A stretch of DNA of 32,000 nucleotides from Pyrobaculum aerophilum str. IM2 (lineage in GTDB: Archaea > Thermoproteota > Thermoprotei > Thermoproteales > Thermoproteaceae): the NCBI RefSeq assembly GCF_000007225.1, contig NC_003364.1, forward strand, positions 1,110,001 through 1,142,000, given 5' to 3'. Below, in pieces: positions 5,647 to 12,705 of this stretch (its first letter is position 1; every line of letters begins with the position of its first letter). The translations under genes were made by a program, and so were the position numbers. The notes beneath the pieces are model-generated. The model ran no database searches. It worked only from the letters and a program-made list of their open reading frames with translations, and was not told where the DNA came from.

Positions 5647-5888
5647 TTAAACAACAGCCCGCCGGGAGGAATCAGCTCCGCCCCCAATTAGCGTAAGCGC
5701 CGGTAACAATACCCCTTCCGGGCGCCGGGGCTGAGCGCCAGCCCGGGCGGAGCCTTGTCCAGTCAGCCCCAGCCTGGCCTACTCGCCTTCTGCCCGCGCC
5801 AGGTGGCGCTAATTCCTTTTATGCGACGCTCTAAACTGTCCCACTGCTTTAAGCGTTGGGCAGAACTGTTGTGCCCCCGCGTAAAGAG

Positions 5889-5900
5889 TTTTTAAATATT
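5889..5900 (+). promoter_or_regulatory. TATA box for the UPF0175-PIN operon
   Basis: TTTTTAAATATT is centred about 22 nt upstream of the in-frame GTG at 5916. Confidence 0.6.
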
Positions 5901-5915
5901 GGTATCGGAAGTGGC

Positions 5916-6137
5916 GTGGAGGAGCTGGCTAGGTATTTCGAGGATTTAGAGGAGGAGCTGAGGAGAATTCGCAGGGAGAGGGCTGATTGGGAGTTTATTA
6001 ACAGTCTCCCTCCTCGGCTTAGAATTGCCTTAATGTACTACATAGAGACGGGGGATTTATACGTGGCGTCTCGCATCGCCGGCATAGCCGCGGAGGAGTT
6101 TAACGAGCTGAGGAGAAGGGCGAAAATACCTAGTTAA
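5916..6137 (+). CDS. UPF0175 (COG2886) family antitoxin, copy 1
   Basis: RIALMYYIETGDLYVASRIAGIAAEEFNELRRRAKIP fits the UPF0175 pattern (short helix, then an HTH-like part ending in IP). The ORF track starts at TTG 5856, but the TATA at 5889-5900 lies inside that extension, so GTG 5916 is preferred. The stop overlaps the PIN start as TAATG (6135-6139). Confidence 0.75.
   Translation: MEELARYFEDLEEELRRIRRERADWEFINSLPPRLRIALMYYIETGDLYVASRIAGIAAEEFNELRRRAKIPS
5947..6056 (+). repeat. 110-bp direct repeat, copy A (partner at 6673-6782)
   Basis: Base-by-base comparison at offset 726 gives 109/110 identical. The only mismatch is 6008 C versus 6734 T. Confidence 0.95.
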
Positions 6138-6712
6138 TGCAGGCAGTTGTAGATACTTGTTTTCTCGTGGACTGGGTCAAGTTCAGCATGCGCGACTTGC
6201 TCTTTGAAGTGTTTAAAGTGGTGTGGATCCCCGAGCCTGTGTTGGGGGAGTTGAGGAGCGAGGAGACTTTGGCTTGGCTCGCCGAGCGCTTGGCGGAGAG
6301 AAAGCTGGCGGTTCTGCCCGAGTTGCCCGAGCTGAGGGCTAAGGCGTTGAGCTTAATGGCAACTGTGGCGTCTAGGCTCTCCTCGCCTATTATTGACTAC
6401 CCCGAGGCCTATTGTCTAGTGGTGGGGAGAGAGATGGGATTTGTCGTATTGACTGAGAATAGAGGCGCCTTTGCCGTCCCGAGGGTAGTACAAGAATATT
6501 TTAACGTCGCCGTGTGGAGATCTCTTGAGGTGCTCGCGCAAGCGGTGCGGCTGGGAAAGGCCGACTGCGGGGTTTTCGACCTATATAGGGAGGAGGCGTT
6601 ACACGAATTCCCCCGCAGGGATTTAGAAAAGGTTTTAAAAGAGCTGGGGTGTAGAAGCCGTGGAGGCGGAAATAGAGGAGGAGCTGAGGAGAATTCGCAG
6701 GGAGAGGGCTGA
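6137..6712 (+). CDS. PIN-domain toxin of the DUF3368/COG2405 type
   Basis: MQAVVDTCFLV (N-terminal acidic residue), IPEPVLGEL, DYPEAYCLVVGREMGFVVLTENRGA and VWRSLEVLAQAVRLG follow the DUF3368 PIN-like pattern. It is translationally coupled to an upstream UPF0175 gene. Confidence 0.75.
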   Translation: MQAVVDTCFLVDWVKFSMRDLLFEVFKVVWIPEPVLGELRSEETLAWLAERLAERKLAVLPELPELRAKALSLMATVASRLSSPIIDYPEAYCLVVGREMGFVVLTENRGAFAVPRVVQEYFNVAVWRSLEVLAQAVRLGKADCGVFDLYREEALHEFPRRDLEKVLKELGCRSRGGGNRGGAEENSQGEG

Positions 6713-6869
6713 TTGGGAGTTTATTAACAGTCTTCCTCCTCGGCTTAGAATTGCCTTAATGTACTACATAGAGACGGGGGATATTAGAAAGGCGTCTAAA
6801 CTAGCCGAAATGCCGCTGGAGGATTTCAGAGAGCTTATGAGAAAGGCCAAGATCCCCTTAACTGCGTGA
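6660..6869 (+). CDS. UPF0175 (COG2886) family antitoxin, copy 2; overlaps the PIN 3' end by 53 nt
   Basis: The N-terminal half is encoded by the same DNA as copy 1 (EEELRRIRRERADWEFINSLPPRLRIALMYYIETGD). The C-terminal part DIRKASKLAEMPLEDFRELMRKAKIPLTA is 14/28 identical to copy 1. GTG start. Confidence 0.7.
   Translation: MEAEIEEELRRIRRERADWEFINSLPPRLRIALMYYIETGDIRKASKLAEMPLEDFRELMRKAKIPLTA
6673..6782 (+). repeat. 110-bp direct repeat, copy B (partner at 5947-6056)
   Basis: See copy A. The identity boundaries are sharp on both sides (5946/6672 and 6057/6783 differ). Confidence 0.95.
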
Positions 6870-7001
6870 GTGAGAGCGAGAGGCTGATCCGCCCGGCAAT
6901 GAGGTCGAGGCCGAGTGGCGACAGCCCCGCCAAGTGCGCTGAGGCGCCCTGCGTCTTGTCGAGACGCGTCGGGGCGTTAAACAGGGGTTAAAAACGCCTT
7001 T

Positions 7002-7406
7002 TCATGGAGCGGCGACCCACCCGTGGCGGGTTCTAACGAGGCCTCTCCTCTTGATATACTCCTCCACCTCCGCCTTAATGCGCGCGAAAACCTCGAAATC
7101 GCCGCATAGAGGCCTTCCGTCTACCACGGCGTCTAGAATCACCATAGAACGCTCCAACACCTCCTCTAGTTTATCCAGCGGAAGCCACACCACTTGGCCA
7201 ATCCGCCTCTGCTCTAAACGGTACTCCCCCCTCTCAATCACGGCCAGGAGATCCCAGTCGCTTAGGGGGGTGAAGTCCCCCCTGGCCCTAGAGCCGAACA
7301 AAACCACGACTAAAGCGTTGCGACACAGCTCTTCAATTAACCTTGAAGCCTCCGCCTCTTTCCACCTTGTCAACTCACGCAACGCCTCCAGCCACCTGTC
7401 GTACAT
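7002..7406 (-). CDS. Minimal nucleotidyltransferase (MNT) of a HEPN-MNT module
   Basis: VVLFGSRARGDFTPLSDWDLLAV matches the GSxxRGxxxxxSDxD polymerase-beta-type motif. The track ORF starts at 7466, but the internal ATG at 7406 (MYDRWLEAL) gives the usual short overlap with the upstream HEPN gene. Confidence 0.85.
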   Translation of the reverse strand: MYDRWLEALRELTRWKEAEASRLIEELCRNALVVVLFGSRARGDFTPLSDWDLLAVIERGEYRLEQRRIGQVVWLPLDKLEEVLERSMVILDAVVDGRPLCGDFEVFARIKAEVEEYIKRRGLVRTRHGWVAAP

Positions 7407-7761
7407 ACTCCCACAAGGCCTCCATGCACTTGACGGCCTCCTCCCCTTCCCACTTTCTGTACTCATTTAACCGCGCATCTGGATACCTCGCCTGTATATA
7501 ATGAGACTCCAGCGCCTCGGCGCACCTCATCGCCTCCTCAGGCACAGAAACCCCGAGCACTTTAGCCAATAGCGCCAGGAGCTCCGAGAGAGAGTGCGTC
7601 AAGGGTCGGGATCCCGTCAGTTTAATCAACACTCCCTTGAGCAGAAACTCCACGGACTGTTGCGCGAAAAAAGCCGCCGAGTCGTACCTATTGTTAATTA
7701 AATCCTCGCGGGCATAGTCGCGGTATCTTAACGCCTTTTTGATCCAAGCCTCGTAGCCCAC
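7375..7761 (-). CDS. HEPN-domain protein of a HEPN-MNT module
   Basis: DSAAFFAQQSVEFLLKGVL ... HSLSELL ... ESHYIQARYPDA is the classical HEPN (PF05168-type) helix pattern. GTG start at 7761. Confidence 0.85.
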   Translation of the reverse strand: MGYEAWIKKALRYRDYAREDLINNRYDSAAFFAQQSVEFLLKGVLIKLTGSRPLTHSLSELLALLAKVLGVSVPEEAMRCAEALESHYIQARYPDARLNEYRKWEGEEAVKCMEALWEYVRQVAGGVA

Positions 7762-10326: not shown

Positions 10327-11412
10327 GTGGAGATCTCAGTGGAGAGGAAGCCGCTGGAGCTAGGGGGGAGGTTGCCGAGATGCCTAGTAGTTTTTAAGGG
10401 CGAGGGCGGCGTGGAGATCGCCCGGATTTCTCTATACTGGATGCAGGGGAAGCTCTACGCCAAGTTTAAGGGGACGCGCGAGGCCGCAGAGCGCCTTGTG
10501 TCAATCCTTAGGGATCTCGGCGGGGCGGCTGAGGCGAAGCAATACGGCGGCAGTTGGTACGTGGTTTTAACCACTAACGCCATAGCGGCAATAGGCCACG
10601 GGGGGTGGAGAGACGCGGTGAGGGGATTCGTGGAGGACCTCCACAGCGCTGGGGTTATAGACGAGCAACGGCGCGATGCGCTTTTAGAAAAACTAGCCGC
10701 GGCGGAGAGTAAAATCCCGCTTGCTGGGGTTTATTTCAACGTTAATTACGACAAGTCGAGGGGAGCGCTTGCGGCCGTTTATAAGCCTAAAAGCGAGAAG
10801 AGGTTTAAAAAAGCCGTGGAGCTGTTAAAACGCTACGGGCTGGCCGAAGGGCTTCACTTCACTGGGGGGAGGACCCCGGGAGGCAGGTATTACATACGGC
10901 TGACTTACGACGGCATTAGAGAAGTGGCGAGGCGGGCCTCTGCAGGCGACATTGCGGCTAAAATCCTCGTCGAGAGGTTTAAGAAAGAGGCCTCGGCCTT
11001 AGGAGCTGGCGAGGCGGCTGAGAGGCTGATAAACTCGGCGCCAGGAGCCCGCAGGTTGCCGCTAATGGTGGAGGGCGGCGGGGCCGTGGTCAAGGCGCTG
11101 TCCGCCGAGCTTTCAGAGGGGTGTAGAGGGCTGGACTGTCGCCTCAAAATAACAGTTGAATACGAGGCGGGCGGCCGGACTAACCGCCTCTCTATTGTCT
11201 ACAGGTGGGAAAAGAGCGGAGGGGGATACGCGGCGAGGGCCGAGGTGAGGCTCGGAGACTCCGTTAAGGCGGCGGTATTAAAAGCGCTTGTGGGGGAGTA
11301 CGCTGTCAGCGCGGGCAAGGCTAAGTTATTCATGCGCCATCTGGAGAAATTAAGCGAATTCGCGGAGTTGGCAGAGGCCGTGGGGAAGTGGCTGAGGACA
11401 AAAGCCGAGTAA
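10327..11412 (+). CDS. PaREP2-like repeat-family protein (Pyrobaculum-specific, function unknown)
   Basis: Overall resemblance to the PaRep2 family as I remember it. There are internally repeated modules (10399-10593 and 10726-10926). GTG start with TTTTAAAGAGTAAAAAACC at 10291-10309 upstream. Confidence 0.55.
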   Translation: MEISVERKPLELGGRLPRCLVVFKGEGGVEIARISLYWMQGKLYAKFKGTREAAERLVSILRDLGGAAEAKQYGGSWYVVLTTNAIAAIGHGGWRDAVRGFVEDLHSAGVIDEQRRDALLEKLAAAESKIPLAGVYFNVNYDKSRGALAAVYKPKSEKRFKKAVELLKRYGLAEGLHFTGGRTPGGRYYIRLTYDGIREVARRASAGDIAAKILVERFKKEASALGAGEAAERLINSAPGARRLPLMVEGGGAVVKALSAELSEGCRGLDCRLKITVEYEAGGRTNRLSIVYRWEKSGGGYAARAEVRLGDSVKAAVLKALVGEYAVSAGKAKLFMRHLEKLSEFAELAEAVGKWLRTKAE

Positions 11413-11421
11413 CGCTCCGCC

Positions 11422-11901
11422 TTACTCGCCGAGCACGCGCCTAGTGAGCTCCTCCACTAACCTGCTCACTTTTTTCAAAGCGCTTGCCACTTGCTCCCGC
11501 GTCGCCCAGCCCTCGTAGAAGTTTATGTGCATGGCGTTTGCCTGGGCCCAAGCGTCGTGTACCCAATCGCCAAGCTCCCCGGCGATTTTACTGGCATAAC
11601 GCCACAGCTCTCCATGGGAGGACAGCCTAACTCCCTCCCGCCAGTAGGCGTAGGCCTTAACGGCAAGCGCCGCGGCTCCCCACGCCTTTTCGCTGGCCTG
11701 GCGCAAATCCCCCCTCTCCAGCCCCTCACCGGCGGCGGAAAGCAACTCCCTCGCCGCCTCTGCATATGCCCTGGCCCTCTCAGGGGGATCCGCGCCCGCC
11801 AAGGACACCTCCAAGAGGTAGTCCTCAAGGGAAATCCCCGCCGACTCTGCCGCTTTTCTAAGCCTTTTTGTTAAAACCTCAGGCAAGGAGAGGATCTCCA
11901 C
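11422..11901 (-). CDS. PaREP1-family protein (N-terminal RHH-like segment plus helical HEPN-like domain)
   Basis: EKAWGAAALAVKAYAYW ... SHGELW ... AMHINFYEGW matches my recollection of the PaREP1/PaREP8 family (PF05942). The N-terminus ILSLPEVLTKRLRKAAESAGISLEDYLLEV looks like a ribbon-helix-helix. Confidence 0.65.
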   Translation of the reverse strand: MEILSLPEVLTKRLRKAAESAGISLEDYLLEVSLAGADPPERARAYAEAARELLSAAGEGLERGDLRQASEKAWGAAALAVKAYAYWREGVRLSSHGELWRYASKIAGELGDWVHDAWAQANAMHINFYEGWATREQVASALKKVSRLVEELTRRVLGE

Positions 11902-11998: not shown

Positions 11999-12388
11999 GT
12001 GAATAAAGACGCCGAGCTCTGGCTTAGACAGGCTGAGCGGGATTTAATTAAGGCAGAGAACGACTTAAAGACGGGCGATTGGGACTCTGCGGCTTTCTGG
12101 TCGCAGCAATGCGCAGAGAAGGCGCTAAAGGCTTTACTCTTAAACGCGGGTAAAGCATATAGAGGGCACGAGCTTTTAGAGCTGGCGAGAGTAATTAAGG
12201 AGGAGATCGGCGTTGACGTCTCGCCTATTGAGGAGGACTTGAGGGAGTTGACAATTCATTACGTTATATCCCGCTATCCAAACGCGGCGAATGCAGTGCC
12301 CTACGAGCTTTACGATGAGAAAAAGGCCAGGGAGTTAGTGGAAAGGGCCAGGAGGGTGTTGGAATGGGCAAGGCGAAATCTGCGCTGA
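11999..12388 (+). CDS. HEPN-domain protein (second HEPN-MNT module)
   Basis: DSAAFWSQQCAEKALKALLL ... GHELLEL ... IHYVISRYPNA is the classical HEPN pattern. GTG start. Confidence 0.85.
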   Translation: MNKDAELWLRQAERDLIKAENDLKTGDWDSAAFWSQQCAEKALKALLLNAGKAYRGHELLELARVIKEEIGVDVSPIEEDLRELTIHYVISRYPNAANAVPYELYDEKKARELVERARRVLEWARRNLR

Positions 12389-12705
12389 AATCTCAGACAA
12401 GGGCGTTGGAGCTGGCTAGATCTGCCGTAAACAGCGCCGTGTCTATATGCCGGGCGAGAGGCTGTAAAATCGCCGCGGCCTATCTAGTGGGCAGCAGGGC
12501 GAGGGGGGACTATCGAGAGGACAGCGATATAGATCTCGTCCTTATAGTCGAGGGCGTCGAGGGGCTGAACGCCCTGCAGAGACTGGAGCTTTTCAAAGAG
12601 GCCCTGCAGCCAAACGTAGAGCTCAGAGTATACTCGCCGTCGGAGTGGCACAGCGACAGCCCCTGGATGAGGGAGTTGAGGAGGGAGGCCCTGCCGTTGT
12701 ATTGA
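12364..12705 (+). CDS. Minimal nucleotidyltransferase (second HEPN-MNT module)
   Basis: YLVGSRARGDYREDSDIDLVLIV motif. It overlaps the HEPN gene by 25 nt. Confidence 0.85.
   Translation: MGKAKSALKSQTRALELARSAVNSAVSICRARGCKIAAAYLVGSRARGDYREDSDIDLVLIVEGVEGLNALQRLELFKEALQPNVELRVYSPSEWHSDSPWMRELRREALPLY

Follow-up and report, generated by a model that had tools for sequence, protein, structure and literature searches.

Introduction

Most accounts of toxin-antitoxin modules present them as gene pairs, and it is debated how their hosts lose them safely. The closest known kind to the locus described here is a VapBC-type module, and specifically the pair of a PIN gene and a paREP6 gene predicted by Makarova et al. 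2009 (PMC2701414). Our locus lies in a stretch of 32,000 nucleotides from the genome of Pyrobaculum aerophilum str. IM2 (contig NC_003364.1, positions 1,110,001 to 1,142,000; hereafter the window, to which all coordinates below refer) and consists of a gene for a PIN-fold protein, the putative toxin, sandwiched between two paralogous paREP6 genes that we call A1 (upstream) and A2 (downstream).

Makarova et al. present paREP6 as a helix-turn-helix (HTH) family that is only distantly related to COG2886 and often adjoins PIN genes in Pyrobaculum, other Thermoproteales and Korarchaeum. The small proteins of the window are the very proteins so named, and the HTH description agrees with what we find for them. 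Three-component COG2405 systems do appear in Matelska et al. 2017 (PMC5499597), but these combine the toxin with a protease and an HTH protein (HTH + PIN + DUF955) rather than with two paralogues. Both papers treat COG2405/COG2886 or paREP6 as a gene pair, whereas the module of the window has three genes. Within the accessible text of open-access papers and preprints, we found no description of the sandwich, of half-gene identity or conversion, or of repeat-mediated loss of the toxin, although absence from that literature is not proof.

Our reading of the locus, to which we give a probability of roughly 0.72, is that it is an A1-PIN-A2 module in which the N-terminal halves of A1 and A2 are converted against each other within the locus, and that the resulting repeats recombine, removing the toxin and leaving a chimeric small gene.

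Results

A three-gene module with a 110-bp coding repeat

All features of the module lie on the forward strand. A1 (5916-6137, 73 aa, GTG start) encodes a putative antitoxin or regulator, a small all-helical protein of predicted HTH type, and its TAA stop overlaps the ATG start of the PIN-fold gene at 6137 (TAATG at 6135-6139). The PIN-fold gene (6137-6712, 191 aa, AAL63796.1) encodes the putative toxin. A2 (6660-6869, 69 aa, GTG start), which is paralogous to A1 but differs from it in the predicted HTH half (IRKASKLAEMPLEDFRELMRKAKIPL), starts 53 nt inside the toxin open reading frame (ORF). Small, adjacent, co-directional genes with overlapping ends are the layout of type II toxin-antitoxin modules, and this is the layout found here.

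The two small genes share a direct repeat of 110 nt that encodes LEEELRRIRRERADWEFINSLPPRLRIALMYYIETGD. Copy 1 (5947-6056) and copy 2 (6673-6782) are identical at 109 of 110 positions, in register at an offset of 726, and the sole mismatch (6008 C, 6734 T) is a synonymous third position in a leucine codon (CTC/CTT). Outside the repeat, identity is 8/31 nt directly 5' and 45/81 nt directly 3'. The coordinates, gene layout, repeat and abrupt edge of identity given in an initial annotation of this DNA, made from the sequence alone, were thereby all confirmed; the 14/28 aa that it reported for the C-terminal halves became 12 of 26 aligned residues on recounting. Over its final 40 nt (6673-6712) the toxin ORF runs through repeat copy 2 in a different frame, and there is no third copy of the repeat elsewhere in the 32-kb window.

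Two close relatives from independent assemblies (L075 and L076) have the same three genes, with repeats that are 110/110 identical. Because the same three genes are found in these independent assemblies and at dozens of unrelated loci, mis-assembly of the window itself is excluded. A contig from the Logan assemblies (L068, run SRR24490442) corresponds to positions 6073-7055 of the window with one base different (Q to R in the toxin); it begins 17 nt beyond repeat copy 1 and passes through copy 2 with no break. Had copy 1 been covered too, this would be odd for an assembly of 31-mers.

Distribution of the three-gene layout

A scan anchored on the toxin, with one genome per species, yielded 61 loci in Thermoproteota and beyond, and both sides of each were tested with the A1/A2 profile. 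A paREP6-type ORF flanks the toxin on both sides in 54 of the 61. These sandwiches occur in Pyrobaculum, Pyrodictiaceae, Desulfurococcales, Thermofilum, Ignisphaera, a Korarchaeia-type metagenome-assembled genome (MAG), Methanomethylicia and Njordarchaeota, and the seven remaining loci are contig-end cuts, partial toxin matches or distant relatives. The same three genes stand around toxin homologues in other Pyrobaculum, and the layout is repeated in a second module of P. aerophilum-like genomes and in one P. islandicum module. From these sequence comparisons, the sandwich is an ancient, conserved architecture of the family and not a recent product at the window locus, and a layout shared so widely among distant lineages leaves no room for the recent unequal recombination to which the initial annotation had attributed it.

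Modules can be numerous in a single genome: one MAG (CAZCFI01) has five, each with its own matched N-half, and the genomic neighbourhoods of modules vary between loci. At the other extreme, two loci (L063 of Methanophagales and L066 of ANME-1) have distant toxin relatives of 24-30% identity with a small-gene match only upstream; L063 has no second copy in about 2 kb of downstream sequence. The ancestral state before the sandwich may have been a plain gene pair of this sort.

Concerted evolution of half a gene

When A1 and A2 of the same locus are compared, their proteins are 90% identical in the N-terminal half and 47% in the C-terminal half. Between loci, the N-halves are 65% identical, and the C-halves 71% (A1 against A1) or 57% (A2 against A2). 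The nearest neighbour of an N-half is its same-locus partner in 82 of 116 cases; for the C-half it is the same-position gene of another locus in 100 of 116.

This pattern is also present in the DNA. Within-locus N-half identity is 89% at the nucleotide level and ranges continuously from 68% to 100% across loci. Codons for the same residue are identical in 83% of cases within the N-half of a locus, as opposed to 45% between loci and 47% in the C-half, and the proportion of differing synonymous sites (pS) is lowest within the N-half of a locus, at 0.30 (median 0.22), and rises to 0.64 in the C-half and to about 0.8 between loci. When partners were permuted, an identity as high as that seen within loci was not reached once in 10,000 permutations. 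Because within-locus identity extends to synonymous sites, the sequence data point to recurrent short-tract gene conversion within the locus, limited to the N-half, as its source.

The conversion stops at the same place in most lineages. Over 56 loci, the fraction of identical codons is 0.65-0.9 along the shared part and still 0.61 at the Asp of a Gly-Asp pair, then 0.00 at the three codons that follow, in all 56 loci; beyond this boundary, A1 typically continues with L-Y-V and A2 with I-R-x. A block of identity of at least 90 nt is present in 26 of the 56 loci, and 23 of these 26 blocks are free of mismatches. Of the 41 blocks that are 60 nt or longer, 33 stop no more than 15 nt from the Gly-Asp codons, seven stop 46-58 nt short of them, and only the one at L059 extends into the C-half. 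The two copies of the repeat lie 705-827 bp apart across loci. What keeps the limit in place is presumably the divergence of the sequences beyond it, together with selection for two different C-halves. Seen against the family, the 109/110 repeat of the window is a typical case of a general pattern.

At the window locus itself, the A1 gene of IM2 holds an A2-type 5' segment, EEELRR, where the A1 genes of other Pyrobaculum and the allele of the L069 lineage have the shorter EEA(R/K)R. The recent gene conversion suggested in the initial annotation is borne out by this acquisition.

Three further loci show how the tract varies. At L059 (Desulfurococcales MAG, JAGGXK010000059.1), an A1/A2 block of 188 nt, with about 90% identity (81% in protein), reaches into the C-half and may be a conversion past the usual limit. 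In some lineages (e.g., L094 and L095) the converted block reaches further 5', i.e., the 5' limit varies while the 3' limit is fixed. The solo gene at L119, compared with L118 and L012, has a front end like A2's own N-terminal extension, and its upstream DNA is homologous to the DNA upstream of A1.

Two other sources of the N-half identity were considered and rejected. Independent duplication in each lineage is out, since the C-halves group by position across lineages, and co-evolution at the protein level without conversion is out, since the identity covers synonymous sites.

Toxin-less chimeric forms in Pyrobaculum

A protein search with A2 retrieved a 75-aa protein (P0045) that is exactly the first 47 residues of A1 followed by the C-half of A2, as well as a variant of this chimera with an EEARR segment (P0046). 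The contigs that encode them (L069-L074), from close relatives of P. aerophilum, are syntenic with the window: the chimeric gene stands between the gene for a multicopper oxidase and the nucleotidyltransferase (NT)/HEPN pair, with the toxin absent. Their match to the window breaks off at the end of repeat copy 1 and resumes with copy 2. The interval missing from them is 726 bp of the forward strand (6057-6782, equivalently 5947-6672) and comprises the C-half of A1, the toxin and the N-half of A2. There are three deletion haplotypes: L073 has C at the diagnostic site, L074 has T, and L069-L072 combine the short 5' segment with T. Other samples from these lineages contain the full module (L075, L076 and L162-L171). 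In a P. oguniense-like lineage, a chimeric toxin-less form (P0053, locus L077) stands at that lineage's own locus. A 726-bp deletion that would remove the toxin and leave a chimeric antitoxin had been predicted in the initial annotation, and the P0045 gene at its syntenic locus is that product; the comparison of one- and two-antitoxin alleles across Pyrobaculum that it proposed likewise turned up both forms (L069-L074 and L077 as against L075 and L076).

In the P. aerophilum-like lineage of L170, L165 and L070, about 98% identical to the window, the module forms part of a block of about 7 kb (PHO4, multicopper oxidase, module, NT/HEPN, 131-aa gene) that is bracketed by copies of DUF3800 and DUF3782/PD-(D/E)XK genes.

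Deletion forms across the family

Metagenomes were scanned with the small-protein profile as the anchor, so that the toxin played no part in the selection, and the sample was ranked by similarity to A2. Of the 80 loci obtained, 45 are sandwiches, 24 are solo genes and the other 11 are cut or partial. Nineteen of the solos had enough upstream sequence for comparison, and in 13 of these the upstream DNA (about 170 nt, outside the repeat) is 81-100% identical to the DNA upstream of A1 in a sandwich. Every solo carries an A2-type C-half. Synteny between a solo and a sandwich holds on both sides in five pairs (L149/L157, L110/L093, L127/L146, L130/L118 and L111/L115), and the crossover of L127 maps within the repeat. 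Solos with A1-upstream DNA fall into about eight lineages, and together with the Pyrobaculum cases they bring the number of separate deletions to ten or more. Many solo paREP6 genes are, by this sequence evidence, deletion scars of three-gene modules.

The toxin is also lost by other routes: L100 has a larger deletion, L098 and L099 retain partial toxins, and at nine loci the toxin is frameshifted. An exact-pattern scan of metagenomes for the two allele types (the A1-specific 5' sequence, a gap and either C-half start) returned 0 matches.

The small proteins belong to paREP6

The A1 product is 100% identical to P0054 and the A2 product to P0042, and UniRef names both PaREP6. Against the Pfam family UPF0175 (PF03683), A2 scores 15.6 bits (E = 0.013), below the cut-off of 27.9, and A1 gives no match. 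Among 23 relatives of the small proteins, ten have weak UPF0175 matches (best E = 0.0035) and five have weak matches to Sigma70_r4_2. The family profile retrieves only 119 representative clusters among 1.84 billion proteins, and this search did not pull in the wider UPF0175 family. We conclude from these profile searches that paREP6 is a small family distinct from mainstream UPF0175; the initial annotation had assigned both genes to UPF0175, the first as a canonical antitoxin, but these proteins are only distant relatives of that family, with neither reaching the Pfam threshold.

The structural model of A2 (predicted local distance difference test, pLDDT, 93.8) has five helices, at residues 2-16, 19-24, 27-39, 42-48 and 53-62. 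Its best matches in the PDB are region 4 of sigma-E, domain 4 of sigma-A and Fis, all non-significant with E > 1. The identity boundary falls in the loop before the last two helices of the model, which would make up the HTH proper. The C-half of A1 (LYVASRIAG..EEFNELRRRAK) is of a position-specific A1 type that is conserved across loci. Both halves of both small genes are under purifying selection, with ratios of nonsynonymous to synonymous differences (pN/pS) of 0.25-0.36, the A2-specific half standing at 0.36.

A domain like that of the small proteins also occurs at the C-terminus of four large proteins, P0108 (777 aa), P0126, P0140 and P0170, whose N-terminal parts are repeat-rich and which have a hydrophobic segment. 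This domain is of the A1 type (..TGD.YLA.R.SGL..DEF.EL..), so that the A1-type half is not confined to toxin modules. Viral contigs searched for relatives of the small proteins contained none, and this is therefore not a viral module.

The PIN-fold protein and its tail

The AlphaFold model of the toxin (pLDDT 89.5) has as its top Foldseek matches in the PDB VapC15, Rv0301, VapC4 of P. horikoshii and a Shigella VapC, all with probability 1.0, and target-normalised TM-scores against VapC structures (4chg, 3h87, 5h4h and others) are about 0.6-0.7. In an alignment of 16 toxin homologues, the acidic residues D6, E33, E38, D87 and E107, candidates for the active site, are invariant. Sequence profiles are less forthcoming. 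The sole Pfam match of the toxin is to PIN (PF01850; E = 0.069, 14.2 bits, below the cut-off of 23.6), only four of 16 relatives have weak PIN matches, and a direct scan of the window toxin and 15 relatives for DUF3368 (PF11848) gave no match at E <= 1. Precomputed tables do list PF11848 for relatives at 42-50% identity, and mark it as weak in the two paralogous modules looked up. A search of PDB sequences with the toxin profile found only a chance match to a viral polymerase (E = 0.24), and 2mdt, the structure cited for COG2405, was not among the hits. On this evidence, the middle protein is a PIN-fold protein. The label "DUF3368-type PIN toxin" given to it at the outset is not one that a direct scan can demonstrate, and its match to PIN itself lies below the Pfam threshold.

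The conserved core of the toxin is residues 1-174 (6137-6658); a lineage-specific tail of residues 175-191 (6659-6709) follows, which is unmatched in homologues and modelled as disordered (pLDDT < 50). At most loci the stop codon of the toxin gene precedes the shared core of A2 by 8-45 nt (median -29). That of the window falls 25 nt within the core, the furthest read-through among intact loci, so that the ORF runs about 54 nt beyond the family median. The distance from the end of the conserved toxin core to the A2 core is 23 nt in the window and is the same in L001 and L008. The initial annotation had taken the toxin C-terminus for a recombination junction; with the geometry of toxin end and A2 start conserved and only the stop codon moved, the tail reflects a shifted stop codon within a conserved overlap and is not a junction scar.

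At nine loci (L094, L096, L121, L123, L132, L146, L150, L152 and L156) the toxin match is split across frames, at several of them near profile position 91, and at L098 and L099 only the 3' part of the toxin is left. These split or partial toxins are either pseudogenes or sequencing errors.

Putative promoters and surroundings of the module

A TATA-like box (TTTTAAAT, 5890-5897, forward strand) lies 26 nt 5' of the A1 start codon and is the putative promoter of a leaderless A1-toxin transcript; the same spacing is found in L001, L075, L078 and L081. A second box (TTTTAAAA, 6633-6640, forward strand), within the 3' end of the toxin gene and 27 nt 5' of the A2 start codon, would provide a separate promoter for A2, and its spacing is also found in L001 and L003. 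The promoter role of both boxes is read from the archaeal promoter consensus. The GC-rich spacer at 5650-5830 folds no better than shuffled sequence (z = -0.53), and Rfam and tRNA scans of the entire window gave no match.

Two pairs of HEPN and nucleotidyltransferase genes of the MNT type lie in the window, one directly downstream of the module (7002-7466 and 7375-7761, both on the reverse strand) and one further on (11999-12388 and 12364-12705, both on the forward strand). Such pairs are another predicted kind of toxin-antitoxin system, and the module therefore sits in a stretch rich in elements of this sort. A PaRep2b gene (10327-11412, forward strand) and a PaREP1 gene (11422-11901, reverse strand) are also present, and the content of the region differs between close strains (L069, L075 and L170).

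Discussion

Proposed mechanism

The comparisons above show a conserved A1-PIN-A2 module, N-halves that are converted up to a shared boundary, and recurrent loss of the toxin through the repeats. In our reading, A1 and A2 are ancient paralogues whose C-halves, the two helices of a predicted helix-turn-helix like that of sigma region 4 or Fis, have diverged and are conserved by position. The N-terminal 35 or so codons, which correspond to three helices, are repeatedly overwritten, one copy by the other, through short-tract conversion. The toxin thereby comes to be flanked by nearly identical direct repeats of 90-130 bp, about 705-830 bp apart, on which recombination or replication slippage can act. 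Such an event removes the toxin precisely and leaves an in-frame chimeric gene, with an A1 front and an A2 back, behind the putative A1 promoter. As for expression, A1 and the toxin would be co-translated from a leaderless transcript and A2 made from a promoter of its own. The shared N-half might be the surface that both paralogues present to the same partner, be it the toxin or each other, and the distinct HTH halves might confer different DNA or partner specificities. The occurrence of five modules in one MAG, the variable context and the frequent decay of the toxin amount to toxin-antitoxin-like behaviour, and we take the module to be a probable VapBC-like toxin-antitoxin system. We regard the deletion as a side effect of the repeats, not as a function under selection.

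Several observations weigh against this proposal. A single contig (JAWBAX010000028.1) of a P. aerophilum-like MAG of about 98% identity has the full module at one end (L165) and the chimera at the other (L070), so the full and chimeric forms in the lineage of 98% identity may be paralogous copies or a strain mixture and not alleles. Ranking the metagenome sample by similarity to A2 favours solos with an A2-type C-half, even though at least one A1-anchored locus (L125) was still listed, so that solos with an A1-type C-half were not barred altogether, and all deletion forms come from short-read assemblies. Curated Pfam thresholds are unmet for PIN, DUF3368 and UPF0175 alike, and the structural resemblance of A2 to HTH proteins falls short of statistical significance (E > 1). 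If the N-half were the part that co-evolves with the toxin, its distances might be expected to stand out; in fact, all halves correlate with toxin distance, the N-halves with Spearman coefficients of 0.51-0.53 and the C-halves with 0.63-0.70, and the test failed to single out the N-half. Finally, toxicity of the PIN protein, its neutralisation and DNA binding by the small proteins are predictions.

A bolder version of the proposal, which we regard as rather unlikely, is that conversion keeps a shared antitoxin surface in step, the repeats make the toxin excisable at high frequency, and the orphan chimera immunises its host against related modules. If true, the maintenance, specificity and loss of a toxin-antitoxin module would all be governed by one recombination mechanism.

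Alternative explanations

The alternative that survives best, unlikely as we consider it, is an adaptive escape hatch, in which the repeats are kept so that the toxin can be shed safely while the chimeric antitoxin stays and may protect against re-acquired modules. This was foreshadowed in the initial annotation as a "built-in toxin-excision route". Deletion products are indeed frequent, always in frame and retain the A1 promoter region; in several populations, sandwich and deleted forms have upstream DNA that is 100% identical (L107/L027, L110/L093 and L130/L012), and a near-perfect repeat is kept in about half of the loci. However, conversion between paralogues together with selection on the protein explains the repeats without selection for deletion, an irreversible deletion cannot maintain the element that carries it, and the sandwich persists across classes of Thermoproteota. 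Toxins are, moreover, lost through frameshifts and other deletions (L100, L098/L099) as well. Selection for excision is unsupported; deletion is frequent, and may be a by-product of the repeat.

It is distinctly improbable, in our view, that the module is no toxin-antitoxin system at all, the PIN protein being a housekeeping or regulatory RNase and A1 and A2 ordinary transcription factors that co-evolve with it. The toxic function of the PIN protein is a prediction, identity is higher for the C-half of A1 (71%) than for the toxin (about 49%), which an antitoxin would not usually show, and the A1-type domain also stands at the cytoplasmic end of large membrane proteins. Against this, copy number (up to five per MAG) and context vary, and the PIN gene is often lost or frameshifted and adjoins other toxin-antitoxin-like pairs. 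PMC2701414 likewise files paREP6 and PIN genes as predicted toxin-antitoxin pairs.

We give little credence to the idea that the duplicated DNA is itself a cis-acting element, an operator pair or RNA signal whose identity is kept by selection on the element. That identity includes synonymous sites, and that both copies lie just downstream of putative promoters, would fit such an element. Yet the repeat varies freely from locus to locus (the encoded protein is 65% identical and synonymous sites are saturated), so that no common motif is conserved in it, its within-locus identity is continuous from 68% to 100%, as expected from episodic conversion followed by decay, and no inverted repeats that could be operator candidates occur near the A1 or A2 start.

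Assembly artefact, whereby the repeat of the window would be mis-assembled and the toxin-less contigs would be short-read collapses of the repeat, is very hard to uphold, despite the origin of all deletion forms in metagenome assemblies and the one MAG contig with both forms at its two ends. The full module is present in many independent assemblies (L075, L076, L162-L171). Chimeric joins occur in MEGAHIT contigs of k141 and k127 (L071 and L074), whose words exceed the 97-110-nt repeat, so that, from the way the assembler works, spanning reads should have been required; a k = 31 Logan contig (L077) shows no branch where it crosses the join. The L069 haplotype and the haplotype with the full module differ by 1-2% on each flank, and about eight unrelated lineages, from different samples, have chimeras of their own.

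Lastly, that recent local unequal recombination or duplication made the second antitoxin, with the toxin C-terminus as its junction scar, is scarcely credible. The toxin tail is indeed the repeat read out of frame and is not conserved, but the comparative data (position-specific C-halves and the three-gene layout in distant lineages, and a toxin-core to A2-core distance shared with L001 and L008) refute it.

Implications

Conversion within the module, followed by repeat-mediated loss of the toxin, leaves matched before-and-after loci that form a natural series for the roles of each half of the small proteins. This deletion series bears on whether orphan antitoxins protect against related toxins, and on the rates of short-tract conversion and of repeat-mediated deletion in hyperthermophilic archaea. 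There is also a point for annotation, in that solo paREP6 genes are often the scars of three-gene modules.

Comparison with known systems

The module resembles VapBC systems in that its toxin is predicted to have a PIN fold with VapC proteins as the best structural matches, in that the stop of the upstream small gene overlaps the toxin start, and in being a multi-copy, mobile module with frequent toxin decay. It differs in having a second paralogue 3' of the toxin that overlaps the toxin end, and in its paREP6 proteins, which are compact five-helix domains without an obvious disordered tail to wrap the toxin; its toxin-antitoxin role, too, is a predicted one.

Three-component toxin-antitoxin systems include toxin-antitoxin-chaperone modules, omega-epsilon-zeta and paaR-paaA-parE. 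The module of the window likewise has three genes, and regulation may likewise be split from neutralisation. In contrast to those systems, its third gene is a paralogue of the first with an identical half, and there is no chaperone, protease or unrelated regulator.

Gene conversion drives the concerted evolution of paralogues, for example of the duplicated tuf genes and rRNA operons of bacteria, where, as in A1 and A2, copies are homogenised within a genome, synonymous sites included, while orthologues diverge. Here, however, conversion covers only one half of a gene of 70 codons, its 3' end point coincides in most of the 56 loci, which come from distant lineages, and the converted segments flank a third gene.

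Short direct repeats, for their part, delete through RecA/RadA-dependent recombination or replication slippage, with one copy and the intervening DNA lost precisely and a hybrid copy left, which is also the form of the chimeric loci. What sets these loci apart is that the repeat is coding and is continually renewed by conversion, and that the product is an in-frame hybrid gene with a putative promoter.

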